Position numbers and translations under genes: made by a program. A stretch of DNA of 64,000 bases from Armatimonadota bacterium (GTDB lineage Bacteria; Armatimonadota; UBA5829). This document shows positions 3,485-61,511 of this stretch, one piece after another (within the stretch, counting starts at the first letter, position 1; each line of letters opens with the position of its first letter). The stretch is taken from contig JBMNES010000001.1 of assembly GCA_050948905.1 (NCBI GenBank), positions 896,129-960,128 on the forward strand, in the 5' to 3' direction. The notes below the pieces were generated by a model. The model was not told the origin of the DNA. It was given only the letters and a program-made list of their open reading frames with translations, and ran no database searches.

Positions 3485-3650
3485 CCGTTAACCGCGAACC
3501 GACAACTGACAACCGAAAACCGACAACCGAAAAAGCAGATTTCTCACTTCGTTCGAAATGACGGGAAAGGTGTTCGAAATGACGGGGAAGGTATTCCAAA
3601 TGACGGGGAAGGCGTTCCAAATGACGACAAAGGCTTTCGAAATGACGGAG
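3485..3650 (+). repeat. Heptamer tract, GAAATGAC hairpin repeat and 21-nt tandem array
   Basis: (ACAACCG)-like units, then AAAAGCAGATTTCTCACTTCGTTCGAAATGAC; AAATGAC ends at 3562, 3583, 3604, 3625 and 3646. Confidence 0.9.
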
Positions 3651-5065: not shown

Positions 5066-5200
5066 AAAAACGCGAACGCGCGAAAGAAGCGAAAACTAGA
5101 AATGACGATATGGGGAGTCTGAGTAGGTTTGAAGGGACTTCGAGTGACGGATGTCGGTGCATGGAAAAAGCAGATTTCTCGCTGCGCTCGAAATGACGGG
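5066..5200 (+). repeat. Composite intergenic element: CGAAA 9-mer tract plus GAAATGAC hairpin repeat
   Basis: AAAACGCGAACGCGCGAAAGAAGCGAAA...AAAAGCAGATTTCTCGCTGCGCTCGAAATGAC; same layout at 41752 and, inverted, at 60149-60290. Confidence 0.8.
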
Positions 5201-23686: not shown

Positions 23687-24262
23687 ATGGAGAGCACGTT
23701 GAGTCTTGATCCCAAAGTAACCACTTCCTCGCCGAGTTCGCAGCTTGATTCCAATTTTAAGCAAGAAATACAAGCGATCTGCGGCGAAAACGTATTAAGC
23801 TGTTATCAATGCGGCGAATGCACCGGAGGTTGTCCGGTCGCGTTCAGTATGGACATAGCCCCCAACCAGGTTATTCGCATGGCCCAGGCTGGAATGAAGG
23901 ACGAGGTGTTGAGCAGCACGGCAATTTGGCTGTGTGCAGGCTGCGAGACGTGCGCCACGCGATGCCCCAGGGGTGTTGCGTTGTCCAAGATAATGGACGC
24001 CTGCAGGCAGATATCCGTAGCCGAGGGCAAGGTCAATCCGGAGCAGAAGAATGTGCTTAAAATGCACGAAGAGATGCTGCGGCAGATTAAGACCTTCGGT
24101 CGGGTGCATGAGATAAGCATGATAGCGGCGTTCAAAATGCGCACAGGCCGGTTCTTCGACGACGTGATCTCCGGGATAAATATGTTCCTGAAAGGCAAAC
24201 TCGGCCTGATCCCGGGCATCATCAAAGGCCGCAGGGAAGTGAAGGGGCTGTTTAAGGAATAG
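23687..24262 (+). CDS. hdrC: Heterodisulfide reductase subunit C
   Basis: CYQCGECTGGCP and WLCAGCETCATRCP 4Fe-4S motifs. Confidence 0.9.
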   Translation: MESTLSLDPKVTTSSPSSQLDSNFKQEIQAICGENVLSCYQCGECTGGCPVAFSMDIAPNQVIRMAQAGMKDEVLSSTAIWLCAGCETCATRCPRGVALSKIMDACRQISVAEGKVNPEQKNVLKMHEEMLRQIKTFGRVHEISMIAAFKMRTGRFFDDVISGINMFLKGKLGLIPGIIKGRREVKGLFKE

Positions 24263-24276
24263 GTGCGGCCAGCTAC

Positions 24277-24520
24277 GCTGTCATTGCCAGCGAGCTAAGC
24301 TGTCATTTCGAGCGAGCTAAGCTGTCATTTCGAGCGAGCTAGGCTGTCATTTCGAGCGAAGCGAGAAATCTGCTTTTAACAGGCTATGAATAAGAGTATC
24401 AGTATCGACACTGAGCATTATCAAATGCTGCGAGGAAATTAAAGGCCAATTTTAAGAATAAAGGCGGCCGAGCCTGCTGTCATTTCGAGCGAAGCGAGAA
24501 ATCTGCTTTTAACAGGCTAT
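24277..24520 (-). repeat. 22-nt tandem array and two copies of the GTCATTTCGAGCGAAGCGAGAAATC hairpin repeat
   Basis: GTCAT starts at 24280, 24302, 24324 and 24346; identical 45-bp direct repeat at 24343-24387 and 24476-24520. Confidence 0.92.
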
Positions 24521-24534
24521 AAAGGACAATAGAG

Positions 24535-24858
24535 GTGCCGACTAAAAAGCAGTATTATGTATATCTGCTATCCAATAAATCCAGAACGCTTTATGTCGGC
24601 GTTACAAGCAATTTAGAAAAACGTCTTTATGAGCACAAAAATAAACTGTGCCCTGGCTTTACTAGCAAATACAGTATAGATAGACTTGTGTATTTTGAAG
24701 TGTGTGACCGGGCAGAGGCTGCTATTGCCAGAAAAAAGCAAATTAAAGCGTGGTCGCGAGAAAAAAAGATTGCGTTAATTGAAGAGAATAATCGTGTTTG
24801 GTCAGACCTGAGTGATTGTTGGGAGCAAAAAGCAGATTTCTCGCTGCGCTCGAAATGA
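24535..24858 (+). CDS. Small GIY-YIG nuclease (YhbQ/UPF0213, Ssn-like)
   Basis: YYVYLL...LYVGVTSNLEKRLYEHK, GFTSKY and LVYFE motifs; AIARKKQIK in place of AIAREKQ.K; AT-rich. Confidence 0.9.
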   Translation: MPTKKQYYVYLLSNKSRTLYVGVTSNLEKRLYEHKNKLCPGFTSKYSIDRLVYFEVCDRAEAAIARKKQIKAWSREKKIALIEENNRVWSDLSDCWEQKADFSLRSK

Positions 24859-24859
24859 C
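24828..24859 (+). repeat. Hairpin repeat copy, inverted relative to the upstream copies; supplies the GIY-YIG stop codon
   Basis: AAAAGCAGATTTCTCGCTGCGCTCGAAATGAC with TGA at 24856-24858. Confidence 0.92.
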
Positions 24860-24971
24860 GTTGTTGCTCCAATCGAAATCACATCAGATGCGTTGGAAAC
24901 AACATCGTAGCTGCGCTGGATGCAAAATAAAAGGGCAGGCAAGATTTCGAAGAGGCAAGGAGGAGCAAGTG

Positions 24972-25190
24972 ATGCGGTTTACTGTTGTGGTCGAGCGCGA
25001 TCCTGCGGGCAAATATTCGCTTACGGTTCCGGCCCTGCCGGGATATGTCGCTTGTGGGGACACTGAAGAAGAAGTGATTGCTCTTGCCCGTGAAGGGATA
25101 CCATTTCACCTTGCGTGTCTTGCCGAAGAAGGTCTGCCCTCTACTGTGGATGGAGACGCAAAGGTATTGAGCCTGGAGATCGCGGCTTAA
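24972..25190 (+). CDS. HicB-family antitoxin-like protein (short, orphan)
   Basis: MRFTVVVERD..GKY..TVPALPG....GDTEEE......EGI..HL..L pattern; AGGAG RBS. Confidence 0.8.
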   Translation: MRFTVVVERDPAGKYSLTVPALPGYVACGDTEEEVIALAREGIPFHLACLAEEGLPSTVDGDAKVLSLEIAA

Positions 25191-25243
25191 CGTTATTGCA
25201 GCTTTCAATAATTATATAAAAACTCAAAACTAAGGATTTTCGC

Positions 25244-26131
25244 ATGAACTATGCATATTTCCCGGGCTGCAGCCTGGAATCGACGGCAAAGGAGTTTCAT
25301 AGCTCCACGACTCTGGTCGCGGAGGCGTTGGGAATCGGGCTTCAAGAGATTCCGGATTGGAACTGCTGCGGGGCGACCTCGGCGCACAATCTTGACCATG
25401 ATCTGAGCATTTCTCTGCCCGCGCGCAACCTTGGTATCGCAGAGCGTATGAAGATGGACGTTGTCGCGCCGTGTGCGGCTTGTTATAACCGGATGCGCTC
25501 TGCTGAAGTCGAGTTAAAATCTAATCAGACCCTGCGTGATGACATCAACTCGAAGCTGGAAAAGAAGTTTACCGGTGAGATTTCGGTGTATTCGGCTCTG
25601 GAGGTGTTTACCCAGCCGGAAGTGCTGCAAAGGGTGTCTGAGAATCTGCGAAAGCCGCTGACCGGGCTGAAACCTGCCTGTTATTACGGCTGCCTGCTTG
25701 TTCGACCGCCTAAGGTGATGGGCTTCGACGATGCCGAAGAACCGGTTAGTATGGATGAAGCGATGAAGACTGTCGGCGCGGAGCCGATTGAGTGGTTCTT
25801 CAAAAACGAATGCTGCGGGGCGAGTTTTGGGATATCCAGAAGCAGCATAGTCGCTGAGTTGACCGGCAAGATTATCTCTAACGCGAAGCAGCACGGGGCC
25901 AATTGTATCGTAACCGCGTGTCCGCTGTGTATGACTAACCTTGAGATGAGGCAGGCGGCTGCCGGCAAAATGCGCGGAGAGGACCTGGCGATGCCGATTT
26001 TCTTCTTCACCGAACTGCTCGGCCTCGCTATGGAGGTACCTGGCATTAAGAAATGCTTCGCGTCTCACCTCGTCGACGTAAACCCTGCGCTGGATCTCAT
26101 TGGCAAGGAGCCTGTCGAAGTAGAGAGCTGA
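25244..26131 (+). CDS. hdrB: Heterodisulfide reductase subunit B
   Basis: YFPGCSL, WNCCGA, YYGCLLVRP, ECCGA and ACPLC (CCG domains). Confidence 0.93.
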   Translation: MNYAYFPGCSLESTAKEFHSSTTLVAEALGIGLQEIPDWNCCGATSAHNLDHDLSISLPARNLGIAERMKMDVVAPCAACYNRMRSAEVELKSNQTLRDDINSKLEKKFTGEISVYSALEVFTQPEVLQRVSENLRKPLTGLKPACYYGCLLVRPPKVMGFDDAEEPVSMDEAMKTVGAEPIEWFFKNECCGASFGISRSSIVAELTGKIISNAKQHGANCIVTACPLCMTNLEMRQAAAGKMRGEDLAMPIFFFTELLGLAMEVPGIKKCFASHLVDVNPALDLIGKEPVEVES

Positions 26132-26139
26132 AGGTCGAA

Positions 26140-26322
26140 ATGAAGACTGAGTTCACGCTTGAATATTGGACGGACGAAGGCTGGTGCGTAGGCCGGCTCA
26201 AGGAAGTGCCGGGAGTATTCAGCCAGGGCGAGAATTTGGAAGAGTTGATCGCTAACATACAGGAAGTCTATCGGCTAATGAAAGAAGATATGCCGCGGCA
26301 TGACATACACAGTGGTACTTGA
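26140..26322 (+). CDS. HicB-family protein (short, orphan)
   Basis: FTLEYWTDEGWCVGRLKEVPGVFSQGENLEELIANIQE. Confidence 0.75.
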   Translation: MKTEFTLEYWTDEGWCVGRLKEVPGVFSQGENLEELIANIQEVYRLMKEDMPRHDIHSGT

Positions 26323-26515
26323 GCGTGAAGACGATGGTGGTTACAATGCTTTCGCCCCGGCCTTGCAGGGCTGCAATAGCCAAGGTGATACTCTGGATGA
26401 GGTGAAAGTAAATATTCGAGAGGCGATTGAGCTATATTTAGAGAGCCTTAAAGCTGCTGGGGAGCCTTTTCCTGATGACGACGTTCAAATATTGCCGATT
26501 GAGGTAGCTGTTTAG
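26300..26515 (+). CDS. HicB-family protein (short, orphan)
   Basis: MTYTVVLEREDDGGY.A.APALQGC.SQGDTLDE...NIREAIELYLE. Confidence 0.85.
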   Translation: MTYTVVLEREDDGGYNAFAPALQGCNSQGDTLDEVKVNIREAIELYLESLKAAGEPFPDDDVQILPIEVAV

Positions 26516-41751: not shown

Positions 41752-41970
41752 GAGAAAACGCGAAAACCCGAAAGAGGCGAAAGTCAGAAAATAATGGAAA
41801 GCGCTGCGTTGATGGATCGAACTTCCAACATCTGACCTCGGACATCGAAAAAAGCAGATTTCTCACTGCGTTCGAAATGACAGGGAGGGTGTCCGAAATG
41901 ACAGGGAGGGTGTTCGAAATGACGGGGAGGAAGTTCGAAATGACAGGGAGCGTGTTTGAAATGACAGGGA
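41752..41970 (+). repeat. Composite element: CGAAA 9-mers, heptamers, hairpin repeat and 21-nt array
   Basis: AAATGAC ends at 41881, 41902, 41923, 41944 and 41965. Confidence 0.9.
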
Positions 41971-46654: not shown

Positions 46655-46774
46655 AAAAAGCAGATTTCTCACTTCGTTCGAAATGACAAGGTTGGCGTTC
46701 GAAAGGACAAAGGTTGGTAACGTCGAAACAACTCCAGCGTCGTTCGAAATTGCAACGATGGTCATTCGAAATGA
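46655..46774 (+). repeat. Hairpin repeat with a degenerate 21-24-nt array between pilB and pilT
   Basis: AAAAGCAGATTTCTCACTTCGTTCGAAATGAC; CGAAA at 46679, 46700, 46724, 46745 and 46767. Confidence 0.85.
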
Positions 46775-48651: not shown

Positions 48652-51351
48652 TCAGTCTTGCACAATCGACGCTGTGATAAAGACCACAACCTCAGAGCGC
48701 TCCTTGGTCTTGTTTCTATGCCTGAAGAGATGACCGAACAGCGGTATATCCCCTAAAACAGGGATTTTACTCAGAGAATCGAGTTCGCTGTCGAGAATTA
48801 GTCCGCCAATTACTATCGTCTCCCCGTTTTTCACACGCAGAACGTGGTCGGTGAAGCGACGGGTTATAACAGGCAGCGTAATTCCCGCCTCCGAGCGCAT
48901 ACTGGTGTCGAGCTTCAGGGTGCTGACCTCCGGGTGCAAATTGAGGGTTATGTCGCCATCATCGGTGACGGCTCCCACCACAGATAACTGCACCCCGACA
49001 TTGGCGGTGTCTGTGGTAACTGTCGGCGCGCCGTTGGTAGCGACGCTGATCTGCGTGATGTATCTGATCTCGTCACCGACAAAGAACTGCCCCGGTTTGC
49101 CCTCAAGACAAATCAGGCTGGGCGACGCAAGCAAAGTCCCATCCCCACTGGCAATCAGTGCATCAAGCTTCGCTCCAAAATCAACTGGTTCCCGATGCCA
49201 GCGATTGCGTGAGACCTCTACCTTGCTAAACTCACCCCAATTCCAGCTCACTCCAAGGTTCTTCTCACCCGTCTCGGAGAGAGCGGTAAATTTGGCCTCT
49301 ATCTTGATCTGAGGGGATTTTACGTCAAGCATCTCGATTATCGACAGGGCCTTCTTAACGTCGTACTTGCGGCCCTGAAGGACCAGCAGCCTGGAAAGAC
49401 TATCCACGGCCTGGGCGTTCATCGCGCCCTGCTGCTTGACGTTGGTCTGATCCTTACCAGCTTCACGAAGGTCGTCGTCCGATTTGCCTCCGGCTCCACC
49501 GCCGGCAGGGCTTGAGCCGCCGCTGCCGGAATCCTCCGACGGATCAAGACCGGCGCTCTCCAGCACGACCCCAGGGGTTAGTTTTCTCAACGCGGCGACA
49601 ACGTTCTTTAGACCTACATATTTGAGCTTATATGTCGCCAGCTCAAAGTCTCCCGGCACATCGAACTGGGCCGCTGTGTCGAGCGCTTTTTGCACATCGT
49701 CCGCTTTGCCCACGATAATTAAGGTGTGGCTGAAGTTACCGGACTGCGTATCGAACTGCCTCACGGTATTCTCACCGCTGATCGCGCTTGCCGGGATCAG
49801 TTTATGCTTGGAGTTATCCGAACTCGGCATTCCAGCGAGCGCATCCGACGGCGCAAGAAGTACGTTTACGCCCATCACAACCGACATCAGAGTGTTGGCC
49901 AGCTCAACGGTGTTTACGTGCTTCACCGGATACAGGCTGATCTTCTTATCCTCCGACTGGTTTTTCATAGTCTCTTCGACCTGAGCTATGAACTCCTTGG
50001 CAGCATCTATGCGATCCTGTGTGCCGGAGAGGATGATCAGGTTGCTGGAAGGCGAATCGGTGGCAGATGTGCTGCTCAATATCTCCTCGGTGCTGACCGC
50101 ACCCCCTGTGTTGACGTTGGCGGTGGCGCCTGTCGCAGGCTGAATGTTAGCCTGTTCACCGAAATCCGCCTGTCCATCGGCGGCTTCGATGTTACCGCTT
50201 GACGGTGCCCCTTTGCTTTCGGATTCGCCCTTTATATTGGCATCAGATTTTACCGCAGATTTCGTGGCTATTTCGTGCTTGCGCGCTTTGCCACCCAGGA
50301 CGCTGATCTTGCTTGATCGAACATGCGGACAGCGCACTTTGAGCATGCCCAGCACATCGTCGGCGTTGGCGTAGGTTAAGGTCACTATCTCGACCTGAGA
50401 ATCTGCAAATCCACCTATCGAATTGAGGGAGCCTACGAGATATGTTTGCTGTGTCTTTACATAGGTAAAACCGCTGAGCTGGGTTATGTAGTCTAACGCC
50501 TGCTCGACGGTGACGTCCTTTAATGTGACAGTAATCTTGCCTGCCACATCGCTGCCGACGACGATATTCTCCTTGCTTTGTACGGAAATCGCCTTCAACA
50601 CGTCCTCAATGTCAGCGCCCAAAAAGTTCAGCGAGACGGTTCTGCCCGCGCCCATTGACGCAGGCACCGAGGCCGGTTTAGCGACAGGAGCCGCCGGCTG
50701 ATGATTGACAAACGCAACCTGTTGAGCAACAGGCGCTGCTGCATTAACCGCGACCGCCGGTCGCATTGCGGCTTCAATTGCCTGGATGCTCTCCACCGCC
50801 ACCGGAATAGCCATTGGCGGCTCTTTAGCCAGGACAGCTTTAGAGGGCACAGAACTGACCTCGACCGCAGGCGCGGCCGGTATATTCGGGGCGGCCGTCT
50901 CCGCCTTTGGCGTGGCGCCGAACTTCCAAACGGATATCTCTACGCGCGTCCTGTCGTCGTTCCACGATGTGGAGTAGTCCAGATTGCTGGCCGTATTGAA
51001 TACGATACGTGCCGCCGGCGGTTTTTCCTGGAATCTCGAATAGCGGACGTTATGGATTTTTCCGCTCTGAATCGAGACCATTCGGCCTTCGACGTTGAGC
51101 TGTCCGGCGAATTGAAATGCTATGAATCGGCCCGAACTCGATGAGATTACTCCCATCTTGAGCGGTGCGTCGCCCTGCACCGATACGATTGCACGATCGG
51201 GCTTGTTGGCAACGTTGACCCCGGTGATATTGACTGCGGCTGCCTGGCTGACGATCAGCAGAGCCAACATCGTGATGATGATCCCCTGCAGGGAGATCAA
51301 GGCGCCGATTCGCCGGGTTTTAGACTTTGCGGCGAACGCGTTAGCTTGCAT
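48652..51351 (-). CDS. pilQ: Secretin (PilQ/GspD family) with N-terminal AMIN-like domain
   Basis: VSLNFLGADIEDVL, QIKIEA, GETIVIGGL and KIPVLGDIPLFGHLF motifs. Confidence 0.9.
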   Translation of the reverse strand: MQANAFAAKSKTRRIGALISLQGIIITMLALLIVSQAAAVNITGVNVANKPDRAIVSVQGDAPLKMGVISSSSGRFIAFQFAGQLNVEGRMVSIQSGKIHNVRYSRFQEKPPAARIVFNTASNLDYSTSWNDDRTRVEISVWKFGATPKAETAAPNIPAAPAVEVSSVPSKAVLAKEPPMAIPVAVESIQAIEAAMRPAVAVNAAAPVAQQVAFVNHQPAAPVAKPASVPASMGAGRTVSLNFLGADIEDVLKAISVQSKENIVVGSDVAGKITVTLKDVTVEQALDYITQLSGFTYVKTQQTYLVGSLNSIGGFADSQVEIVTLTYANADDVLGMLKVRCPHVRSSKISVLGGKARKHEIATKSAVKSDANIKGESESKGAPSSGNIEAADGQADFGEQANIQPATGATANVNTGGAVSTEEILSSTSATDSPSSNLIILSGTQDRIDAAKEFIAQVEETMKNQSEDKKISLYPVKHVNTVELANTLMSVVMGVNVLLAPSDALAGMPSSDNSKHKLIPASAISGENTVRQFDTQSGNFSHTLIIVGKADDVQKALDTAAQFDVPGDFELATYKLKYVGLKNVVAALRKLTPGVVLESAGLDPSEDSGSGGSSPAGGGAGGKSDDDLREAGKDQTNVKQQGAMNAQAVDSLSRLLVLQGRKYDVKKALSIIEMLDVKSPQIKIEAKFTALSETGEKNLGVSWNWGEFSKVEVSRNRWHREPVDFGAKLDALIASGDGTLLASPSLICLEGKPGQFFVGDEIRYITQISVATNGAPTVTTDTANVGVQLSVVGAVTDDGDITLNLHPEVSTLKLDTSMRSEAGITLPVITRRFTDHVLRVKNGETIVIGGLILDSELDSLSKIPVLGDIPLFGHLFRHRNKTKERSEVVVFITASIVQD

Positions 51352-51970
51352 TTGGAACTCCTCCTAATTTAACGTGGATCCGACGATTCTCACAGGCCAA
51401 AACGACGCCATCCGTCGAGACGGAAAGCACTTTGTAGCGCCCGCCGATGAACTGGCCCTGCTTTACAATATGCCTTTGCGAACCAACTTTAATAATCGCG
51501 ACATTCTCAGTTCCGCAGATCACTCCCGTCAGTGTAATCTGCGGTTCCGGCTCAATTGCGGGTACCGCAGCAACCTCGGATACGGGTGCGCTTTGGAAAC
51601 TGCCCATAGGTATCAGCGGAGGTACCTTGCCTGTGCTCACCTGCACGACCTTCGCAGTCGGGCTGCTGACAGGCAGCTCGGGCACCTTATCCGTGACTTT
51701 AGGCTCAACTGTGCTTGCCAATTTCTGCACGGCAAACGGGTCTCTGCGCGGAATCGGAGAGTTCAAATCCGGATACGTAGCCGTGGTCGGCAGCGGCTGC
51801 GAGCGCAGTTGCATCGCTGCCGCATTGGTGTTTGGTTTGGTCACTTTGGGCACAGGTGGCGTCATCTCAGTGGCCGGGGGTTTGGTCACGGTAAATGACA
51901 CGTATCCTATGCACACAAGGACCAGCAAGCCAAGCACGATTAATTGTGGGGTTTGTTTTTTATCCTTCAT
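51341..51970 (-). CDS. PilP-like pilus assembly protein
   Basis: TM anchor, RRDPF, LTGVI...AII...VKQGQ motifs; lies between pilO and pilQ. Confidence 0.65.
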   Translation of the reverse strand: MKDKKQTPQLIVLGLLVLVCIGYVSFTVTKPPATEMTPPVPKVTKPNTNAAAMQLRSQPLPTTATYPDLNSPIPRRDPFAVQKLASTVEPKVTDKVPELPVSSPTAKVVQVSTGKVPPLIPMGSFQSAPVSEVAAVPAIEPEPQITLTGVICGTENVAIIKVGSQRHIVKQGQFIGGRYKVLSVSTDGVVLACENRRIHVKLGGVPNAS

Positions 51971-52670
51971 TTTTTCTCTCCATCGGAACCCCCGCGCAGT
52001 CGTCAGCCGGCTTTTGCTTGCTGTTTGAAGTCTCTTTAAACACAAAAGCTGTCGCGTTGATTTTTATGCTGAGTTTCGTGCTGCCAGCGTCACCCGACCC
52101 GGATTGCGGGGTCATTTCGAGGGAATTGACCGCCAGGATCTTCGGAAAACTGGTGAGCTTATAAAGAAAATCCAGGGCGTTCATATAATGGCCCTCAAGC
52201 TCCAGGTCAACTCCGAGCTCATCGTAAGGCTTCGGCGGCTCAGGTCTCTCAGCTGCTGCCGCTCCCCCAGAGCTATCTGCAGCAGCCGCGGCGGCCTGCT
52301 TTTTGGCGAGCGCGACATTAGGGTCCGGAGGCAGCGGCCGCACGCCCAAAACTTTCAAATCAACAGACCTGCCCAGGTTCTCGATCTGTTTAAGCAGCGT
52401 CGGCACATAGGCCTGGGTAGAAACCGATGACTCCAGGCAACGTATCTGGGCTCGCGTGTCCAGATATTTATTTTCGGTGCTGATCTGGGTCTGCGCGATC
52501 ATCTGGCTGTCTCTGAGCTGCGTCTCGACCTGGCGTTTCTCGGTATCCACCGATCGCACCTTGCCAATAGCGGCCAGGCAGGACAACACGCATAATACAA
52601 AGACCAGCCCAGCCATAATGCCCAGTACAGCTACACCCTTCTGGCTCGGTTTAAGACTGATTTGCGCCAC
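51960..52670 (-). CDS. pilO: Type IV pilus assembly protein PilO
   Basis: TM plus coiled coil; VPTLLKQI and EGHY...DFL..L..FP motifs; synteny. Confidence 0.75.
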   Translation of the reverse strand: MAQISLKPSQKGVAVLGIMAGLVFVLCVLSCLAAIGKVRSVDTEKRQVETQLRDSQMIAQTQISTENKYLDTRAQIRCLESSVSTQAYVPTLLKQIENLGRSVDLKVLGVRPLPPDPNVALAKKQAAAAAADSSGGAAAAERPEPPKPYDELGVDLELEGHYMNALDFLYKLTSFPKILAVNSLEMTPQSGSGDAGSTKLSIKINATAFVFKETSNSKQKPADDCAGVPMERKNEG

Positions 52671-53256
52671 TTGCCGTCCCCCCTTTCGCATCCTCCTGCT
52701 GTTTGTCTCGCAGGGTCGCGCCGATCTCGAACTCTACCACTTGAGCCGAACCCTGTGTGCCTTTTTGCGTGTAGTGCAGATCGACGCTCTTAAAATCAGG
52801 GTTGGAGTGCAACCGCAGCATGGTCTCACCGACTCGAGCCTGCTCGTCGGTCATTCCGGCGATGTTAAGGGTAAGGTCTTTGCTGCCGGCGGCGGTTGAA
52901 GATGACAGACGCGTCAGCCAGGTGGAGGCGGGCACGCTCTGCGTAAGCCTATCGAGCGTGTTATACCAGCACATGGTTCGCGTCATTGCCTGGTTCAACA
53001 GATCGACTTTGGGCTTCAGTTTTGCGGTCTTGTTATCAAGTTCCTGAATAGTCTTGATCTTCGGCGCCAGCGTCTGCAGTTGAGCATTAAGCTCAGCGAT
53101 GTTGGCGCGTGTGGTAAGGGTCTTTGTAAAAACCCACCCGCACAGAGCCACCACAAAGACGAACTCCGCCAAAATCAACATTACTAACTGCCGCATCGCA
53201 CGCTCCAGCCGTCGTTTCTCCGCGCGCCGAGGTGCGATCATATTAATCGAAGGCAT
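52651..53256 (-). CDS. pilN: Type IV pilus assembly protein PilN
   Basis: SINMI (INLLP-like), TM, coiled coil, VP..TWLT motif. Confidence 0.8.
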   Translation of the reverse strand: MPSINMIAPRRAEKRRLERAMRQLVMLILAEFVFVVALCGWVFTKTLTTRANIAELNAQLQTLAPKIKTIQELDNKTAKLKPKVDLLNQAMTRTMCWYNTLDRLTQSVPASTWLTRLSSSTAAGSKDLTLNIAGMTDEQARVGETMLRLHSNPDFKSVDLHYTQKGTQGSAQVVEFEIGATLRDKQQEDAKGGTASGANQS

Positions 53257-53284
53257 CAGCGATACTCCTTTCGTCTCGGCGCCA

Positions 53285-54409
53285 CTACGCAACCGCCTTT
53301 GACGTGGTCTCCGGGATTAGCTCCTTAAGCGCCAGCCCCGTGCTTACGGCGAGCACTGGACCGTGTTCGTCGATAAATTGTTGGGCCACCGATCCAGTCT
53401 TGATGGCGGTCTGATCGAATACACTGGCCACCTGAGCAGGAATATCCAGCCTGCCGGATATATACGAACTCAGGCCGGGCATTCGGGCTGTGCCTCCGGT
53501 CAGCACGATCTTGCTGACCTGTGCGTCGACGCTGCCTTCTGGGAACTGGGATTGGTAGAAGTGAATAGATCGCCGAATCTCCCGGATAAGCTCGTCGAGC
53601 AGCGGCTGAACCACTCGCCAGCATTTGTTTTCCGTGTCGGCGGCGTTGAGTCTGTCGATGGGAAGCTGGGCGGTCATATCCCGTTTTGCCTGCTCGGCAT
53701 CTTCGAAACTACCCCCCAGAAGAGATCGAATTGAATTGGTAAAGCTGTCCCCAGCGATGGGGATGTTTCTGGTCAGGGCAAACTCGCCCTTGCTTACGAT
53801 GTCAACATCTGTGTGGCTCGCCCCAACGTCGATCAAGGCTATAGTGCTGTTGAGGTATTCGTCCGTGGCGTTGAACTCAACAAGCGCCCGGATCACCGCG
53901 AAAGACTCGATGTCGATAACCAACGGCTCCAGACCCGCCGATTCGAGCACAGCCACCCGGCTGTCGATCATATCCTTCGGCGCCGCCACAAGCATGACGT
54001 TCATCTGAGCAGGATCCTCGGCTTCTCCGAGAATCTGGAACTCGACGATGCTGTCTTCCATTGAGGACGAGATGAACTTGCCGGCTTCGTATTTTATCGA
54101 CTTGCGCAGCAAGGCTTCTGCCATCTTGGGGAACTGAACCTGCCGGACTATTACCTGCGAGCCGGATATGGCGCATACGGCTCCGGTGGGTTTCATCCCG
54201 GCGTCGCGAAGCATGTTGCGAATCTCCTGGCTGACATCGACGATGTTGATTATGCAGCCATCTTTGATTGCTTCTTTGGGAGTCGGTGCCACCGCGGCAT
54301 TCACGAGCGTCCAGCCGTGGGGAGTCGGCTCAATTTCGACAGCTTTGATCCAACTGCTGCCGATGTCTATGCCGACCGTGACCTCTTTGCTGAAAAATGA
54401 GCTGAGCAC
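53285..54409 (-). CDS. pilM: Type IV pilus assembly protein PilM
   Basis: VGIDIGS, IDVGAS, EIRRSI.FY and LTGGTA actin-like motifs; GTG start after AGGAGG. Confidence 0.92.
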   Translation of the reverse strand: MLSSFFSKEVTVGIDIGSSWIKAVEIEPTPHGWTLVNAAVAPTPKEAIKDGCIINIVDVSQEIRNMLRDAGMKPTGAVCAISGSQVIVRQVQFPKMAEALLRKSIKYEAGKFISSSMEDSIVEFQILGEAEDPAQMNVMLVAAPKDMIDSRVAVLESAGLEPLVIDIESFAVIRALVEFNATDEYLNSTIALIDVGASHTDVDIVSKGEFALTRNIPIAGDSFTNSIRSLLGGSFEDAEQAKRDMTAQLPIDRLNAADTENKCWRVVQPLLDELIREIRRSIHFYQSQFPEGSVDAQVSKIVLTGGTARMPGLSSYISGRLDIPAQVASVFDQTAIKTGSVAQQFIDEHGPVLAVSTGLALKELIPETTSKAVA

Positions 54410-54628
54410 GTGCCTGTAACCTCCTCGCATTGGCCAGCGAATGAAGACGATTAAACTCGTCTACATAAGAGATTATCGTCATTTGGCGGCTCAACTGTAG
54501 TTCTGTTTCGTGGTTTCGCAAGATAACAGTAATGATTGCTGGGAATATGGAATAACAGCGCAAGCAGGCAGGCGGGACATCATGAAGGTTGGCGGCGCGG
54601 TTTGGGAGAATACAGATGTAACCATCTA

Positions 54629-55330
54629 ATGACTGGGGATAGTAATTTGACCTACGACGCAGTGATTTTCGACCTCTTCGGCACACTTATCGACAGCGCG
54701 AACCCGCAGCACCTTATAAGGCTGTTCCGAGACCCGGTAGCCGATCTGAATTGCGACGCCGACGCGTTTATGTCCGCATGGCTGGGGATTTATCAGGATC
54801 GGGCGACGGGGAAGTTCGGCAGTGTGGCAAATGAGGTTATTTATATATGTAAACAACTGGGAATCGAGATTTCCGAACAGCAGTTGCAACGGGTGGTCGA
54901 GGACAGGCTGCAGGGCTTCCGGGAGCACTGCACGCCGAGGGCCACAGTGCCGGCTACCCTGACCAGACTGCGGCAGGACGGGGTTAAGGTTGGCCTTGTC
55001 TCCGATTGTGGTCAGGAGATACCCGACATCTGGCAGGATACAGAGCTGGCTCCGCTCATAGACGCAACGGTCTTTTCTTGCAATGTAGGCGCGACCAAGC
55101 CGCACCCCAGCCTGTATAAATTAGCCTGTGAGCAGCTTAGTGTGCAGCCTGCGAGATGCCTGTATGTGGGAGACGGCGGCAGCCGGGAATTGACTGGAGC
55201 GGCGGCGGTGGGTATGCACCCGGTGCTGATTCGGGTAGATTATGAGGCATTCTTCGACGAACACCGAGCCGATGCGGTCGGGTGGACTGGCAGGGTGATC
55301 TCGGATATAAGTCAGGTTTTGGAACTATAG
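54629..55330 (+). CDS. HAD-superfamily hydrolase
   Basis: IFDLFGTL, VSD, KPHP and YVGDG motifs; start may be TTG 54647. Confidence 0.88.
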   Translation: MTGDSNLTYDAVIFDLFGTLIDSANPQHLIRLFRDPVADLNCDADAFMSAWLGIYQDRATGKFGSVANEVIYICKQLGIEISEQQLQRVVEDRLQGFREHCTPRATVPATLTRLRQDGVKVGLVSDCGQEIPDIWQDTELAPLIDATVFSCNVGATKPHPSLYKLACEQLSVQPARCLYVGDGGSRELTGAAAVGMHPVLIRVDYEAFFDEHRADAVGWTGRVISDISQVLEL

Positions 55331-55374
55331 CCGACTGTGCGTGTGTCTTAATATTATTCCGTGACACCACCCTC

Positions 55375-55660
55375 GTCATTCCGCGCGAAGTCGCGGAATC
55401 CACGGCTAAGAACAGACGATACGTGATCCTGCGACTGCGCGCAGGATGACAGTGTTTCATAATCGAAAACCGACAACAGGCGACCGTCAACCGAAAAAGC
55501 AGATTTCTCGCTTCGCTCGAAATGACAAGGAGTGGGCGCTCGAAATGACAAGGGGTGGGCGCCCTATATGACAAGGGGTGGGCACTCGAAATGAAAAGAT
55601 TGGGGTTCGAAGGGCCAAGCGTGAGGTTCGATATGACATAGGGATGCGCTCGAAATGACG
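55375..55660 (+). repeat. GTCAT doublet, heptamers, hairpin repeat and 21-23-nt array
   Basis: Inverted doublet at 55375-55450; hairpin at 55495-55526; ATGAC-type units at 55522, 55545, 55568, 55591, 55633 and 55655. Confidence 0.88.
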
Positions 55661-55697
55661 GTGGTGAGGACTCGGATTGGTGGGGAAAGCGGCTTTT

Positions 55698-56333
55698 TTA
55701 ACCATCAACCAGCTTCAAAAACTGATCCCAGTTATCCACCACCCCGTTGGAGCCATTTGTCATCAGCTCTTCCCGGCTTCGTGCGCCCCAGCTTACTCCC
55801 ACCATCGCCATACCGGCTCGTTGGGCCATTTGCACATCGAATATGCTGTCGCCGACGTAAAGGGATTGATCTGCGGTCACTTGCAGTAGCGTCATTGCCT
55901 TGCATACAGGCGCGGGGTCGGGTTTGTGCTGCGTCACATCGTCGGCCGTCACAACACAATCGAACAGGTGACCCATATTGCTCATTTCGATGGCTCTGTT
56001 CGTTCCCTTTGCGTTTTTCGATGTGACGATGCCTGTAGCGCATCCGCGGCTGCGCAGGGTAGTCAACATTTCTTTTGTGCCGGGAAAAGGCTTGCTTGTG
56101 TGGCCGCCCTGTTCTATGTAGGCGGTGCGATACCGGTTCATAAAATCCTGTTCCTGGCCGGGCGCGAACCATTTCGCCTGCACCGCCAATGGGACACCGA
56201 TAGCGTTGCGCATAGTAGCATCGTCGAGGTTAATTCCCAAAGACTCCAGTGTACTGCGGGTGACCGTGACGATTGTCGCGACGCTGTCGAGCAGAGTGCC
56301 GTCGAGATCGAAGATGATTGCCTTGTATTTCAT
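55698..56333 (-). CDS. HAD-superfamily phosphatase (PpaX/Gph-like)
   Basis: IFDLDGTLLDS, VTSK, KPDP and YVGDS..D motifs. Confidence 0.9.
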   Translation of the reverse strand: MKYKAIIFDLDGTLLDSVATIVTVTRSTLESLGINLDDATMRNAIGVPLAVQAKWFAPGQEQDFMNRYRTAYIEQGGHTSKPFPGTKEMLTTLRSRGCATGIVTSKNAKGTNRAIEMSNMGHLFDCVVTADDVTQHKPDPAPVCKAMTLLQVTADQSLYVGDSIFDVQMAQRAGMAMVGVSWGARSREELMTNGSNGVVDNWDQFLKLVDG

Positions 56334-56529
56334 AACCTTAATATAATACTTCCGCACGCAAGCCAGAGTTCCCTTTGAGCCGCATAGCACCAATCAGCTC
56401 ATCTGTCCGACAAAATAGCCGCAGCAATATCCTTAATGTTCACGTTTGACACCATTACAGCGGGGGAACATGATATCGCCACGCCCGGCCGATATCTTTT
56501 GTCGCTCAATTGTAAAGAGGTGGTCGTCG

Positions 56530-57486
56530 ATGTTAAAGCTGATAAGATGCCTGTTATTATGCGTCATCGTAAGCTGCTTCGCCACAAGCTCTGCGCATTC
56601 CACCCGCGTGACCGGCAAAGTCACCGAGATATCCGGGCAAAATCTGACGGCCAGCTTCTCGGTGCCTGTAAAGCCCAATGCGATTATGGTAGTCCTTTCG
56701 GGGAATGGGGAGGCTGTGGCCGGCACGGCTGTGTCCCAACGATGTTCCGGGCTGGGGCCCTACTGCGTCAGCGGCAGCATTTTGTTTGTTGGTGACTCCG
56801 TTAACCTCGTGGCTGGCAGGGAAATTTATGTCAACTCAGTAGATACACTCCCCGCGCCCAGCAAGGTCACTGCGCCGAGCCCACAACCTGCCGCCAGTCC
56901 CCCGACCAACGATTTGAAACTCTACTACTACGCCGCCGGCCAAAACGTGGGTTATGGCACGCTCGGCCTCGGTTATGAACGGACAGTGCGCGTCAGCCGT
57001 GGGCTGGGATTAGAGTTGGACGGAGGCATAACAGCTGTAGGCAACCTGAACAGCCAGGATGCTAGCGTGGTGGACACAGACCAGCTTATCAAGAGCCTCA
57101 ACGCACGCACCCGCTTCGACTTCAGCGACACCGCAGGGTTCTATGCGGCTTATCGCTGGTCTGAAGGGCGAGGAGATGATAAAAGCTGGTCACGTCTGGT
57201 CAGCAATCTGCCCGGCAAAACGTTTGTCGCGCCCTCGGAGTTCGACGATGGCACGGTAAGGCAGCAGGGGCTGGAGTATGGGCTTACCTTCCGTCCCACC
57301 GGGAAATTTGCACTATCGGTCGGCTTCATTCCACAATATCGCACCGACTACGGCATGTTCGGAGTATGCACCGCTCCGGGTTACACAGGGGAACTACGCT
57401 TCGGCACAGGCCGGGGCGCTTTGAGACTGCGCGGGGTCAAGTCCGACGATTATTGGCAGGCCGATTTAGGCATCACTATCCGATAG
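56530..57486 (+). CDS. Exported hypothetical protein with probable C-terminal beta-barrel
   Basis: Signal peptide, Pro-rich linker, amphipathic strands. Confidence 0.55.
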   Translation: MLKLIRCLLLCVIVSCFATSSAHSTRVTGKVTEISGQNLTASFSVPVKPNAIMVVLSGNGEAVAGTAVSQRCSGLGPYCVSGSILFVGDSVNLVAGREIYVNSVDTLPAPSKVTAPSPQPAASPPTNDLKLYYYAAGQNVGYGTLGLGYERTVRVSRGLGLELDGGITAVGNLNSQDASVVDTDQLIKSLNARTRFDFSDTAGFYAAYRWSEGRGDDKSWSRLVSNLPGKTFVAPSEFDDGTVRQQGLEYGLTFRPTGKFALSVGFIPQYRTDYGMFGVCTAPGYTGELRFGTGRGALRLRGVKSDDYWQADLGITIR

Positions 57487-57517
57487 AAAAAGCCCGGCCC
57501 TGGTAAAGGACCGGGCT
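57486..57517. terminator. Terminator hairpin between convergent genes
   Basis: AGCCCGG...CCGGGCT stem preceded by an A-tract (U-tract on the minus strand). Confidence 0.65.
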
Positions 57518-57527
57518 CAATTGCATC

Positions 57528-58943
57528 TTACGAGGGCACTTCGTCAAGCGCCTTTACCTCGCCCAGCGGCGAATCAAGCGGATCACGCCTGCTCGGTCGC
57601 AGCGTCCAGGTGAACGCCAATAACACCGCTGCCAGGAAAGTACATCCTAAAATCGCGCCAATAATAATGTTCCAGGCTACGTGTTTGTTATAAAGCGCAG
57701 TAAAGTGATCCTGCATCCATCCAAACGCCCAGGATTCAATCACCTTTCCCGCATACCCAACCAATCCAATGAACCCCGCCACAGTGCCGATCGCTTTTTT
57801 TGAAGTTAAATCCAGACTCTGCACCACGATTAGATTAATTACCGGATACACGAAGAATCCGACCAGCCCCAACATCGTGAAATCCAGCCAAAGCATGCCT
57901 TTAGGGGTAAGAAGAATCGCGATAAAAGCTCCTAAAATAGGGATCATACAAAGAGTCGACACCATCCCTCGTCGACCCCCCAGCCTATCTGAGACCCAAC
58001 CCAGCAGAATCGTGGAAGGCACCCCTCCGAACTCCGTTATTACAACCGCCAGGCCACCTGCTGTAATGGTTGCGCCCTTGATCTCTCGCAAATACGTCGG
58101 CCCCCAGTCCAGCATACTGTAACGGGACACATAAGCAAAGAAGTTTGCAAAGGCTAAAAGCCACACGTATTTGTTAAGCAGCACATGATCGATAAAAAGC
58201 TCCTTAAAGGAAAGCTCTCGCTCCAGTAAGTCTCCATCGTTGGTGTGAGCCGGATAATCGTTGTTGTATTCCTCAATTGGAGGCAGCCCAACAGACTGTG
58301 GAGTATCCACAAGCCTGACGAATATATACAACGCTCCCGCCAGAGCCATTATTCCAGGAACATAAAAAGCATAATGCCATCCCCCGAAATGGATGACAGC
58401 CCACGCTGCGATATATCCACAGACCCCGCCTCCCACATTGTGAGAAGTGTTCCAGATACTAAAAGTCAGCCCGCGCTCACGCTCACTGAACCAGTGACCC
58501 ATCGAACGGCCGCACGGAGGCCAGCCCATTCCCTGTACCAGTCCGTTCAGCGCCCACAACATCAAATGCAGCTTAAAGTTTCCGGCGGCGCCAAAAGCAA
58601 AATTGCACAACGCCGTCAAAAGCAAACCCAGCGACATAAACTTGCGCGCGTCGCTGCGATCCGACCAGGCGCCCATAAAGAACTTACCTATTCCATAAGT
58701 GGCAGCCGTAATCGCCATCAACAGGCCGATGTCGGATTTGGTGTAGTGCAGAGCACCCTGAACGTCCTTGGCAACTACGGAGAGGTTATTGCTTCTAAGC
58801 AGGTAATAAGTGGCGTAACCAAGGAATGTAGCTTCCATCACCCGCCAGCGATACTTCGGGTAGCGGCGCTTTACTTCTTTATCAGGCAACTGCTTGATGT
58901 GCGGGGCGGCCGCAAGGGGATTCTTGAATCTCAGAAAAGACAT
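57528..58943 (-). CDS. MFS organophosphate:Pi antiporter (GlpT/PgtP/UhpT family)
   Basis: YLLRSN, QGMGWPPC, WNTSHNVGG, DTPQSVGLPPIEEY and DWGPTYL motifs. Confidence 0.9.
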   Translation of the reverse strand: MSFLRFKNPLAAAPHIKQLPDKEVKRRYPKYRWRVMEATFLGYATYYLLRSNNLSVVAKDVQGALHYTKSDIGLLMAITAATYGIGKFFMGAWSDRSDARKFMSLGLLLTALCNFAFGAAGNFKLHLMLWALNGLVQGMGWPPCGRSMGHWFSERERGLTFSIWNTSHNVGGGVCGYIAAWAVIHFGGWHYAFYVPGIMALAGALYIFVRLVDTPQSVGLPPIEEYNNDYPAHTNDGDLLERELSFKELFIDHVLLNKYVWLLAFANFFAYVSRYSMLDWGPTYLREIKGATITAGGLAVVITEFGGVPSTILLGWVSDRLGGRRGMVSTLCMIPILGAFIAILLTPKGMLWLDFTMLGLVGFFVYPVINLIVVQSLDLTSKKAIGTVAGFIGLVGYAGKVIESWAFGWMQDHFTALYNKHVAWNIIIGAILGCTFLAAVLLAFTWTLRPSRRDPLDSPLGEVKALDEVPS

Positions 58944-59104
58944 ACTACCTCCTGTATCCGGTCCTATCGTCGATTCAAGACCTGCCGGATATGCCTATAT
59001 TAGCCACATCCCGACAAACCTCCTCCAATTTATAAAGCAGCTTTCACCCAGAATTATAGGTCGACTGGCTAATTATTCTTTTCGAGTTCCTGGCCTAAAA
59101 ATAA

Positions 59105-60058
59105 CTACTCATAAACGCCATATTTACGCCACACTTCGAGCATCAACTCATATCTCGCCAGCCGCATGCCTGTGTAGATGCAGTTGCTTGTGGAGAAAAT
59201 ATAACCGCCTCCTGGCATCCCGTGCTTCAGGCAGTAGCGCGCCGACTCGATCACTTCCTCATCAGTACCCGTGTCGAGCATCCCACAGTTGACGTTTCCA
59301 ATCAAACAGACTTTGTCCCCGTAAAGTCGCTTGACCTCAGCTATATCAACACCCGCCTGCGGGTCGATGGAGTGCAGCGCATGTGGATTTGTCTGCACAA
59401 GCTGGTCGACTATTGGCATAATATTGCCGTCTGTGTGCTTGATAGTATAAAATCCCATATCCCTGTATCCCGCGATAAGCCTGGCCAAATACGGTGTCAC
59501 AAACTCCGAGAACTGGTTCGGGCTGAGAAATGGCCCCGTGTTCAGGCAATAATCCGCACACAGCGCGAATCCGTCCAGCCCACCGTGCTTTGCTATTTCC
59601 TCGGCGTTTCTCAAAGCACCATCCACCATAGCATCCGCCTGCTTTTTGACCCCCTCCGGGTCATCGACCAGCCGGTAGCTAAAATCCACCATGTGGTTCC
59701 CGTCAGGAATCGAATAGGTGGCGTCGCCGTGGATCATCAGGAAATACTTGTCACCAGTCTTATCTCTGATGATATCAATGAGCCGGAAGAGTTCCTCGTT
59801 GCCGCCGGGGTTTGGATGAAGAAATATCGCGCTGTGCTCATAACGCTCAGCAGTATCGATAAACATATCGGCCATATCGTGTCTATGGAGCTGGCGTTCC
59901 TTTTCCTCCATCTGCTGCCACTGTCCGTAGCTGCGCTGAGAGGTATGCAACTTCCCAAACGCCTCCATAGTCAAGAAAAAGACGAGTTCGAAGTGCGGCA
60001 CCCGCCCAGTAATCGGCTGATGCGTCAATGCTGCGATAAATTTTTCTTTAGGTGTCAT
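59105..60058 (-). CDS. Uroporphyrinogen decarboxylase (UroD/MtaA-like) family protein
   Basis: MTPKEKF..AL, KHTDGNI, LIGNVN and PGGGYIFSTSN motifs. Confidence 0.82.
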   Translation of the reverse strand: MTPKEKFIAALTHQPITGRVPHFELVFFLTMEAFGKLHTSQRSYGQWQQMEEKERQLHRHDMADMFIDTAERYEHSAIFLHPNPGGNEELFRLIDIIRDKTGDKYFLMIHGDATYSIPDGNHMVDFSYRLVDDPEGVKKQADAMVDGALRNAEEIAKHGGLDGFALCADYCLNTGPFLSPNQFSEFVTPYLARLIAGYRDMGFYTIKHTDGNIMPIVDQLVQTNPHALHSIDPQAGVDIAEVKRLYGDKVCLIGNVNCGMLDTGTDEEVIESARYCLKHGMPGGGYIFSTSNCIYTGMRLARYELMLEVWRKYGVYE

Positions 60059-60070
60059 AATACCTGTTCT

Positions 60071-60385
60071 CGGTTGTCGGTTGTCGGTTGTCAAGCCCCG
60101 TCTAGATGGGCGGCGATCTCCGAATCGCCGCCCCACAACCCCTTCCCCGTCATTTCGAACGAAGTGAGAAATCTGCTTTTTCGATGTCCGATATCCGAGG
60201 TTCGAAGTCCGATCTAGCCTTCTGAAGCTCTCCATACTACCGCGCCATATCGTTATTTCTGGCTTTCGCTTCTTTCGCGCTTTCGCGTTTCCTCACCAAT
60301 ATCTGCTTTTTCCGATGTCCGAAGTCAGACCTACGAAGTCCGATTCCAATAAATCCAACTATGTATTATTTCGCGGCTTTCGTGT
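60071..60385. repeat. Mosaic repeat cluster
   Basis: (CGGTTGT)3; AGATGGGCGGCGATCTCCGAATCGCCGCC; GTCATTTCGAACGAAGTGAGAAATCTGCTTTT; TCCGA heptamers; TTTCG 9-mers. Confidence 0.85.
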
Positions 60386-60392
60386 TTATCCC

Positions 60393-61364: not shown

Positions 61365-61447
61365 AGCTACCTCCCGTGGATTCAAGCTGAGTTCGATAAT
61401 TATGATGCCCTGAGATATCGTCTGTCAAACCAGCTACGGCCGCTTCC

Positions 61448-61477
61448 TTGACCGTGAGATACGTCCGGGAGTATAAT
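61448..61477 (+). promoter_or_regulatory. Sigma70 promoter of gyrA
   Basis: TTGACC-18 bp-TATAAT upstream of the GAGG RBS. Confidence 0.6.
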
Positions 61478-61511
61478 TGGTAGGTCAAATGTCACGAGAG
61501 GACCCCTCAAT

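Follow-up and report, generated by a model that had tools for sequence, protein, structure and literature searches.

The window analysed here, 64,000 nucleotides (nt) of DNA from an Armatimonadota bacterium, corresponds to positions 896129–960128 of contig C1 of genome G000, a single-contig genome of 3,053,041 bp with a G+C content of 52.9%. Between the hdrC-like and hdrB-like genes of an hdr operon, at positions 24277–24859, it contains a gene for a small GIY-YIG nuclease (ssn) that is bracketed by copies of a 32-nt hairpin repeat, GTCATTTCGAGCGAAGCGAGAAATCTGCTTTT (Table 1; coordinates without a genome prefix are window positions throughout and positions in Mb refer to G000). As the original prediction described, two copies of the repeat lie upstream of the 107-residue frame in the orientation of the gene, and a third, inverted copy lies downstream and encodes the last residues and the stop codon. 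The two upstream copies are separated by ∼100 nt of unique sequence and each is followed on its 3′ side by AACAGGCTAT, while the stretch 24277–24345 forms a phased array of half-sites directly 5′ of the first full copy. The inverted copy (24828–24859) covers the last ten ssn codons (KADFSLRSK) and the TGA stop, which arises as the complement of the TCA of the repeat.

Table 1. Features of the ssn locus and its flanks, followed by the dispersed repeat copies in the window. SRM, putative Ssn recognition motif (the 32-nt repeat).
Feature	Position	Strand	Evidence
hdrC-like gene (4Fe-4S dicluster protein), left flank	23687..24262	+	Pfam Fer4_8 and related families
Three tandem 22-nt units, each the 5′ half of the repeat (GTCATTTCGAGCGA) plus a spacer; first unit degenerate	24277..24345	+	Direct reading
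Full SRM-type hairpin repeat, copy 1, exact, gene-oriented	24346..24377	+	0 mismatches
Full SRM-type hairpin repeat, copy 2, exact	24479..24510	+	32-mer search
ssn-like gene, single-domain GIY-YIG nuclease, 107 residues, GTG start	24535..24858	+	Pfam GIY-YIG, E = 3.4e-13
Inverted SRM copy, 1 mismatch, loop GCA; encodes end of ssn and stop	24828..24859	-	32-mer search
hicA toxin gene, 3′ remnant, 38 nt	24935..24972	+	Alignment with G005 spacer (intact hicA before the same hicB)
HicB-like antitoxin gene, intact, without hicA partner	24972..25190	+	Pfam HicB_lk_antitox, E = 3.2e-8; G005 comparison
hdrB-like gene (CCG domains), right flank	25244..26131	+	Pfam CCG, E = 1.3e-21; orthologs in relatives
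Dispersed SRM copy, 2 mismatches, A-T inner stem pair variant	3531..3562	-	Intergenic (own gene calls)
Dispersed SRM copy	5166..5197	-	Intergenic (own gene calls)
Dispersed SRM copy	41850..41881	-	Intergenic (own gene calls)
Dispersed SRM copy	46656..46687	-	Intergenic (own gene calls)
Dispersed SRM copy, exact	55495..55526	-	Intergenic (own gene calls)
Dispersed SRM copy	60149..60180	+	Overlaps uncertain 5′ end of a predicted ORF

The ssn product matches the Pfam GIY-YIG family (PF01541) over residues 6–78 and carries no added DNA-binding domain. Tyr10, Tyr20, Gly22, Arg30, His34, Glu55 and Asn86 are invariant in 35 aligned sequences and occur in 120–121 of the 121 members of a larger set; all of these except Gly22 we take to be the GIY/YIG tyrosines and the metal-site residues. 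Mutation of the conserved GIY/YIG tyrosines and metal-site residues abolishes cutting by the Neisseria meningitidis nuclease SsnA (PMC11893778). An AlphaFold model built from the 35-sequence alignment (mean pLDDT of 81, pTM of 0.69, last four residues below 50) shows one compact GIY-YIG domain. The best Foldseek match is the GIY-YIG protein BH0048 (PDB entry 1zg2; E = 1e-4, TM scores of 0.54/0.61), followed by Slx1 and UvrC GIY-YIG domains, and BH0048, a UPF0213 protein, is also the nearest solved structure by sequence (E = 0.001). The UPF0213 proteins BH0048 and EF2693 (1ywl) are thus the best solved-structure matches and share the size and fold of the ssn product, but the identity is only 25%, and we know of no repeat association for UPF0213. 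Searches returned 1730 homologs of comparable length. G000 itself encodes no paralogue of the nuclease: ssn is the sole small GIY-YIG gene, and the other Pfam GIY-YIG match above the cut-off is a 639-residue frame, presumably uvrC. A second, weak protein match (E = 0.35) was considered as a decayed ssn and ruled out, as it is a repeat-encoded tail 3′ of another gene.

The conserved core of the protein ends at Trp96, and residues 97–107 form a variable tail that is encoded by the inverted repeat. These last eleven residues are modelled with low confidence and are missing from about half of 120 metagenomic homologs; a tail of the same kind (e.g. DSSLRSE) is present in 28 of the 120. The ortholog in the genus relative G003 is 80% identical and has the same repeat–gene geometry, and there SLRSK has become SFHSK through paired stem changes (tail EKADFSFHSK). 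Thus, the tail follows the DNA hairpin and not a constraint on the protein.

The 32-mer occurs nine times in the window with three or fewer mismatches, at every position first noted for it, compared with no match in 100 dinucleotide-preserving shuffles at the same threshold. The accompanying statement that all copies away from the gene are intergenic holds for five of the six according to our crude gene calls, and fails for the copy at 60149. Genome-wide, 39 copies are exact, 200 have three or fewer mismatches and 218 have six or fewer. Across these 218 copies the conserved block spans 33–34 nt and reads [C/T]GTCATTTCGA[G/A]CG[A/C]AG[C/T]GAGAAATCTGCTTTT; its GTCAT tag is kept in 214–218 copies and the C just after the stem in 216. 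The block can be drawn as a hairpin in which five Watson–Crick pairs are followed by a tandem G·A/A·G mismatch and a further two pairs, and a C-G pair closes the GNA triloop. Covariation supports this pairing scheme from A4-T24 to C12-G16: at the stem pair 11–17, 132 copies have G-C, 85 have A-T and one has another combination, the pair 7–21 is T-A in 204 and C-G in 13, and the pair 5–23 is T-A in 214 and C-G in three. The mismatch itself hardly varies (positions 9–19 are G·A in 212 copies and positions 10–18 are A·G in 217), and the loop is GNA in 211. In addition, 96 of the 218 copies (44%) are preceded by one to five phased 5′ half-sites (GTCATTTCGA[G/A]C), each with a C-rich spacer of ∼10 nt, the unit spacing being 21–24 nt in 168 of 197 cases.

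SsnA of N. meningitidis is a single-domain GIY-YIG protein of 94 residues (cd10448; Chenal et al., 2025; PMC11893778) which binds the hairpin of a repeat called NTS (CGTCATTCCCGCGMAVGCGGGAATCYRG) only as single-stranded DNA (ssDNA), on one strand, and cuts upstream of it. According to the same source, the Ssn family comprises thousands of homologs, with a related motif, the Ssn recognition motif (SRM), nearby in 71% and on both sides in 42%, and two oligonucleotides that each carry half an NTS can reconstitute a cleavable site. The present locus is alike in its single-domain GIY-YIG protein (∼94–107 residues), in the GTCAT-tagged hairpin that flanks the gene on both sides, in the hundreds of intergenic copies and in having a lineage-specific variant of the motif; the repeat and NTS share both the GTCAT 5′ tag and an ATC-YR 3′ flank. 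Homologs of the protein stand beside exact NTS arrays in other phyla: one in an Endozoicomonas chromosome (51% identity, E = 7.5e-26) and one in an alphaproteobacterial metagenome-assembled genome (49% identity, E = 1.7e-21), where an inverted NTS begins at the first base after the stop codon. At the Ssn loci of relatives, GTCAT hairpins proper to each locus were clear in nine of 19 by a crude scan, several with the same tandem G·A, and at Ssn loci of the same family the tandem G·A is kept while the flanking pairs differ. The layout, the fold with its conserved residues and these homologs bear out the prediction of an Ssn-like nuclease–repeat system. The locus is unlike SsnA/NTS in the invariant tandem G·A and GNA triloop, which place the repeat outside the published search pattern, in the mostly solitary copies that are strand-polarized by chromosome arm (see below), in the phased half-site arrays before 44% of copies and in the translation of the downstream copy as a protein tail.

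We therefore consider it likely, on the strength of the comparisons above, that the locus is an Ssn-family nuclease with its cognate SRM, and the GTCAT strand is the one predicted to be cut, as ssDNA. By homology to SsnA, the protein would bind the hairpin of the GTCAT...ATCTGC strand only when that strand is single-stranded, and would cut a few bases 5′ of the hairpin; the 32-nt repeat would then be the SRM, as a generalized form of the Neisseria NTS. The anatomy of the locus, its homology, the stem covariation, the copy number, the polarity and the insertion are shown by the present data, whereas we infer such binding and cleavage, the choice of strand and any role in recombination or DNA uptake. 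The motif variant, its expected stability on one strand, the arm polarity and the sister species without the gene together make it testable whether the substrate of Ssn is DNA at the fork, recombination intermediates or DNA entering the cell.

Comparison within the genus bears on how the cassette arose. The hdrC–hdrB spacer is ∼54 nt in G001, ∼120 nt in G004 and ∼154 nt in G006, all free of the cassette; it is ∼360 nt with an unrelated open reading frame (ORF) in G002, ∼500 nt with ssn and repeats in G003, and ∼515 nt with intact hicA and hicB in G005. G005 is the nearest relative (HdrC 97% and HdrB 99% identical, ∼90% DNA identity over 360 kb of blocks), and relative to it G000 has a cassette of ∼690 nt in place of all of hicA except the last 38 nt, with sharp junctions, GGTGCGG at the left end and GCAGGCAAG at the right end. 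The comparison with G005 and the short spacers elsewhere show that the cassette is an insertion, in agreement with the predicted insertion into the hdr operon and with the empty sites that it implied. That G003 carries the cassette at the same site speaks for inheritance over repeated jumping; the repeat–gene–repeat cassette would have entered the spacer in an ancestor of the two species and been inherited at the site since. Recent mobility of the gene accordingly seems to lack support, with no paralogue and the same site in a second species, and on the question of a selfish or a domesticated system the sequence alone is neutral. The spacer appears to be a hot spot for small selfish genes. With a 28-nt core and up to three mismatches, the repeat numbers 201 copies in G000 and 142 in G003, the two genomes with ssn, 210 in G005, six in G002 and none in G001, G004 and G006; the last of these is 100% complete and also lacks ssn.

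The repeat copies are polarized by chromosome arm. Minus-strand copies occupy the stretch from ∼2.78 Mb across the contig start to ∼1.0 Mb and plus-strand copies that from ∼1.0 to 2.38 Mb, and a fit with two breakpoints (1.03 and 2.38 Mb) accounts for 197 of the 218 copies, with a score of 176 against a maximum of 68 in 200 label shuffles. Counting copies within 1.5 kb of each other once, 127 of 147 independent clusters fit. Set against our crude gene prediction (2315 ORFs), 127 of the 218 copies point the same way as the upstream gene and 131 the same way as the downstream gene, and 46 run against both neighbours; with orientations as mixed as this, local genes do not explain the polarity, which ties the motif to replication rather than transcription. 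In G005 the copies are again polarized by contig among the 100 matches listed out of 102 (14 of 14 minus on C3, 18 of 18 minus on C4, 13 of 13 plus on C6, and three minus followed by eleven plus on C9), but most of these copies are probably inherited, so that they do not count as independent evidence. No arm polarity was seen for NTS in the Endozoicomonas chromosome (58 plus, 48 minus; arrangement among 100 of 106 matches listed) or in the alphaproteobacterial chromosome (16 plus, 12 minus, strands interleaved), or for a related SRM in G017, a genome of the same family (146 plus, 119 minus; arrangement among 100 of 265 matches listed). The polarity is thus not general to Ssn systems. The terms 'lagging' and 'strand bias' are absent from the text of PMC11893778, and our search of the Ssn-repeat literature found no follow-up beyond this founding paper and one benchmark use of its loci; on that basis the polarity is unreported. 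No copy of the main repeat occurs in the 400 kb around the terminus placed below (2.38–2.78 Mb), and a second gap, of ∼200 kb, extends across the contig start between 2.93 and 0.083 Mb.

The switch points of the polarity coincide with other signs of replication direction. The gene-strand bias switches at the same points as the repeats (59% and 62% of coding bases co-oriented), and the rRNA operons at 1.913 Mb (+) and 0.731 Mb (-) and the L2 gene at 2.997 Mb (-) are oriented in agreement with them. A unique dif-like site occupies an intergenic position between convergent genes at G000:C1:2,475,926–2,475,953; the plus strand carries 64% of the coding bases over the 150 kb left of it and 31% over the 150 kb on the other side. 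Taken together, the gene-strand bias, rRNA operons, L2 gene and dif-like site indicate a terminus at 2.48 Mb and an origin near 1.0 Mb. It is likely, on this basis, that the GTCAT strand is carried on the lagging-strand template. The solitary copies without a gene, ∼90% of which are oriented by arm, would most likely put the structured strand there and so expose it in each round of replication, and we regard the chances as evenly balanced that such exposure at the fork is where Ssn acts. A search for DnaA-box clusters singled out no origin, and neither polarity switch coincides with dnaA (462 kb). Half a chromosome away from the dif-like site is a position (∼0.95 Mb) inside the window, and between 0.9 and 1.08 Mb the repeats are of mixed orientation. 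The window or its vicinity (from ∼50,000–64,000 onward to genome position 1.08 Mb) may contain the replication origin.

Several results weigh against reading the locus as an Ssn–SRM pair whose GTCAT strand faces the fork. Homology to N. meningitidis SsnA (for which PMC11893778 uses a criterion of E < 1e-10) has indirect support, from the homologs beside exact NTS arrays, and membership in cd10448 is putative; of the Neisseria drafts searched with the protein, N. lactamica gave only a match of E = 0.0095 to an unrelated 386-residue frame and N. mucosa gave nothing. The published degenerate SRM pattern finds ten chance-like, unrelated sites in G000 and leaves the flanking copy unmatched; the repeat fails the pattern because of the A in the G·A mismatch. 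The covariation is carried by four abundant subfamilies, and few independent events may underlie it, while nearest-neighbour DNA folding of four copies gave −2.2 to −3.6 kcal/mol with z values of +0.2 to +1.4, no advantage over shuffles. Because the energy model is unsupportive, the hairpin rests on the covariation and on background knowledge that sheared G·A pairs and GNA mini-hairpins are stable. The known behaviour of such loops and mismatches leads one to expect a hairpin that is stable on one strand only. The core GCG[A/C]AGC is a mini-hairpin motif reviewed in PMC13037366 and studied in PMC3201870. In G005, a 98% complete assembly in 20 contigs, searches with the protein and with DNA (best E = 0.13) both failed to find ssn despite the 210 repeat copies, which means either that the repeats outlive the gene or that the gene sits in the unassembled 2%. 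Finally, the cumulative GC skew has its minimum at 2.69 Mb and its maximum at 1.35 Mb, opposite to the gene-strand bias, the rRNA orientation and the dif-like site, and the strand taken as leading is C-rich after removal of the coding-strand effect. An origin at 2.69 Mb by GC skew alone was considered and set aside, since the gene-strand bias, both rRNA operons, L2 and the dif-like site put the terminus there; the conflict is unexplained. The strand taken as leading is both C-rich and A-rich, also at third codon positions, with a replication component of ∼0.03 overall and 0.07 at third positions.

The rival that survives best is a true single-strand transposon, in which Ssn would be the nuclease of the element and the solo repeats its non-autonomous members, spreading via the lagging-strand template as insertion sequences (IS) of the IS200/IS605 type and repetitive extragenic palindromic elements with their tyrosine transposases (REP–RAYT) do. 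Its repeat–gene–repeat layout is IS-like, as PMC11893778 also says, the cassette is an insertion, and Ssn homologs are patchy in related genomes (24 of 61, G000 included). Furthermore, IS200/IS605 elements have hairpin ends recognized as single strands and an orientation linked to replication direction, the lagging-strand template carrying the active strand (PMC5027513 and PMC6006769), a bias that the arm polarity here (197 of 218) resembles; two composite repeats of ∼215 nt also differ in presence between G000 and G005. However, an autonomous IS would be expected to show several gene copies or remnants at varying sites in relatives, whereas ssn is a single copy with no remnants, occupies the same hdrC–hdrB site in G003 at 80% identity and looks vertically inherited, and G005 keeps 210 polarized copies without the gene. 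Unlike IS200/IS605, the system here lacks an HUH enzyme and shows no sign of excision or integration, and which strand faces the fork rests on the origin as placed above. No target duplications were seen at the sites compared, the two presence/absence events may be gains or losses, and neither the related SRMs of G017 nor NTS in the two other complete genomes show arm polarity (for G017 and Endozoicomonas, among the matches listed). It also counts against a transposon that we know of no strand-joining activity in GIY-YIG enzymes, and we consider this explanation unlikely.

Alternatively, the dispersed copies could be REP-type elements handled by a RAYT-like Y1 transposase, with ssn merely embedded among them, which we hold to be quite improbable. 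G000 has a Y1_Tnp gene with HUH and Y motifs (697,423–697,758; E = 1.1e-5, above the Pfam cut-off), SRM copies occur in composite arrays with a REP hairpin, and this hairpin has the same polarity in 124 of its 149 copies. Against this, the REP family that flanks the Y1 gene is a different one, tagged GTAG, and not the GTCAT repeat, GTCAT-tagged hairpins go with Ssn homologs across phyla (at the loci compared here and in PMC11893778), and within the genus the repeat is abundant only in the two genomes with ssn and one close sister, with none or nearly none elsewhere. The likeness to REP–RAYT systems (REPINs) and bacterial interspersed mosaic elements (BIMEs) lies in a single-copy nuclease gene with its own hairpin, hundreds of intergenic copies and mosaics with other repeats; the enzyme here is, however, a GIY-YIG and not an HUH Y1 protein, the repeats are solo and polarized instead of inverted doublets, and a separate RAYT-like gene has REPs of its own. 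That gene, a 167-residue frame and the sole Y1_Tnp gene, adjoins a tandem array of GTAG-tagged REP hairpins (G000:C1:697,423–698,300). That the repeats are transcription terminators or RNA elements, incidentally near a nuclease gene, is scarcely credible: a hairpin followed by CTGCTTTT resembles an intrinsic terminator and the copies lie between genes, but the T run is not adjacent to the stem, orientation ignores the neighbours (both opposed in 46 of 218), a signal scan of 24200–25300 found no terminator-like site and there is no Rfam match at the locus. The same scan found no promoter-like site on the ssn strand.

The Ssn–SRM reading, which we prefer to these alternatives, leaves room for a part of the repeats in genome rearrangement. 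Contig C4 of G005 (380 kb) aligns with G000 in 44 blocks drawn from both chromosome arms and joined with the repeats in one orientation. A repeat copy lies within 300 nt of 12 of the 15 non-collinear junctions (one of which is a mere overlap of adjacent blocks) compared with 13 of 28 collinear ones, so that repeats mark most synteny breakpoints in this comparison. Of the 26 repeat clusters on C4, 12 are at shared collinear sites, two are where G000 has none, 11 are at junctions with flanks at least 16 kb apart and one is unplaced. The two presence/absence cases between G000 and G005 each concern an entire composite of ∼215 nt (half-sites, a full copy and other modules), present or absent as one unit. 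Arm-swapping inversions that keep the polarity would be expected if inverted copies on opposite arms recombined, a service that any dispersed repeat could render. Neisserial intergenic mosaic elements (dRS3 with RS units) are alike in setting hairpins in mosaics of short repeats, and have been suggested as recombination substrates (PMC11893778); in contrast, the modules here are half-site arrays, TCCGA-type octamer runs, TTTCGC runs and REP hairpins, and the mosaics are directional. It is conceivable, if rather doubtful, that the Ssn motif of this lineage is a strand-specific ssDNA element whose nuclease-recognized strand is kept on the lagging-strand template, both its spread and the polarity-preserving, arm-swapping rearrangements proceeding via single strands at the fork. 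If true, Ssn–SRM would be a GIY-YIG counterpart of IS200/IS605 and REP–RAYT, able to shape chromosome architecture.

The Ssn–SRM system as such has been known since 2025; what is unusual here is a motif that escapes the search pattern, the half-site arrays, the arm polarity and the persistence of the repeat in a sister without the gene. The supplementary table of PMC11893778 lists two cultured Armatimonadota genomes without ssnA (two of the 14 supplementary files fall outside this statement), and the locus adds an Ssn–repeat pair in a phylum that the founding paper sampled only through these two genomes lacking the system. Surveys by the published SRM pattern would undercount systems with a motif variant of this kind. 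Polarized repeats persist in a close sister species from which the nuclease was lost or in which it was never present. The pair also offers a new enzyme and site for ssDNA tools.

Orthologs of the hdrC-like gene in five genus relatives are 69–97% identical. Two further small HicB/UPF0150-like ORFs (26053–26322 and 26300–26515) lie between hdrB and hdrA, and in G003 a HicA-like and a HicB-like ORF lie 3′ of hdrB; small toxin–antitoxin genes seem to accumulate in the spacers of the hdr operon. G000 has two further families of GTCAT-tagged hairpins with perfect stems (near 194,6xx, 346,0xx and 409,3xx), with 71 and 37 copies at up to four mismatches. The 71-copy family obeys the arm polarity (56 of 71) and the 37-copy family does not, so that a genome with three GTCAT-tagged hairpin families has only one Ssn gene. 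Tandem arrays of 7 nt (CGGTTGT and variants) often adjoin the hairpin repeats (G000 554,3xx, 557,5xx and 2,826,2xx), and TCCGA-type octamer runs and TTTCGC units occur 3′ of the repeats, giving directional composites of ∼170 nt. Contig C1 of G017 (8.2 Mb) has its own tandem-G·A SRM, with 265 copies at up to three mismatches, mostly as inverted pairs ∼40 nt apart, and the exact variant beside its ssn occurs only there, in seven copies.

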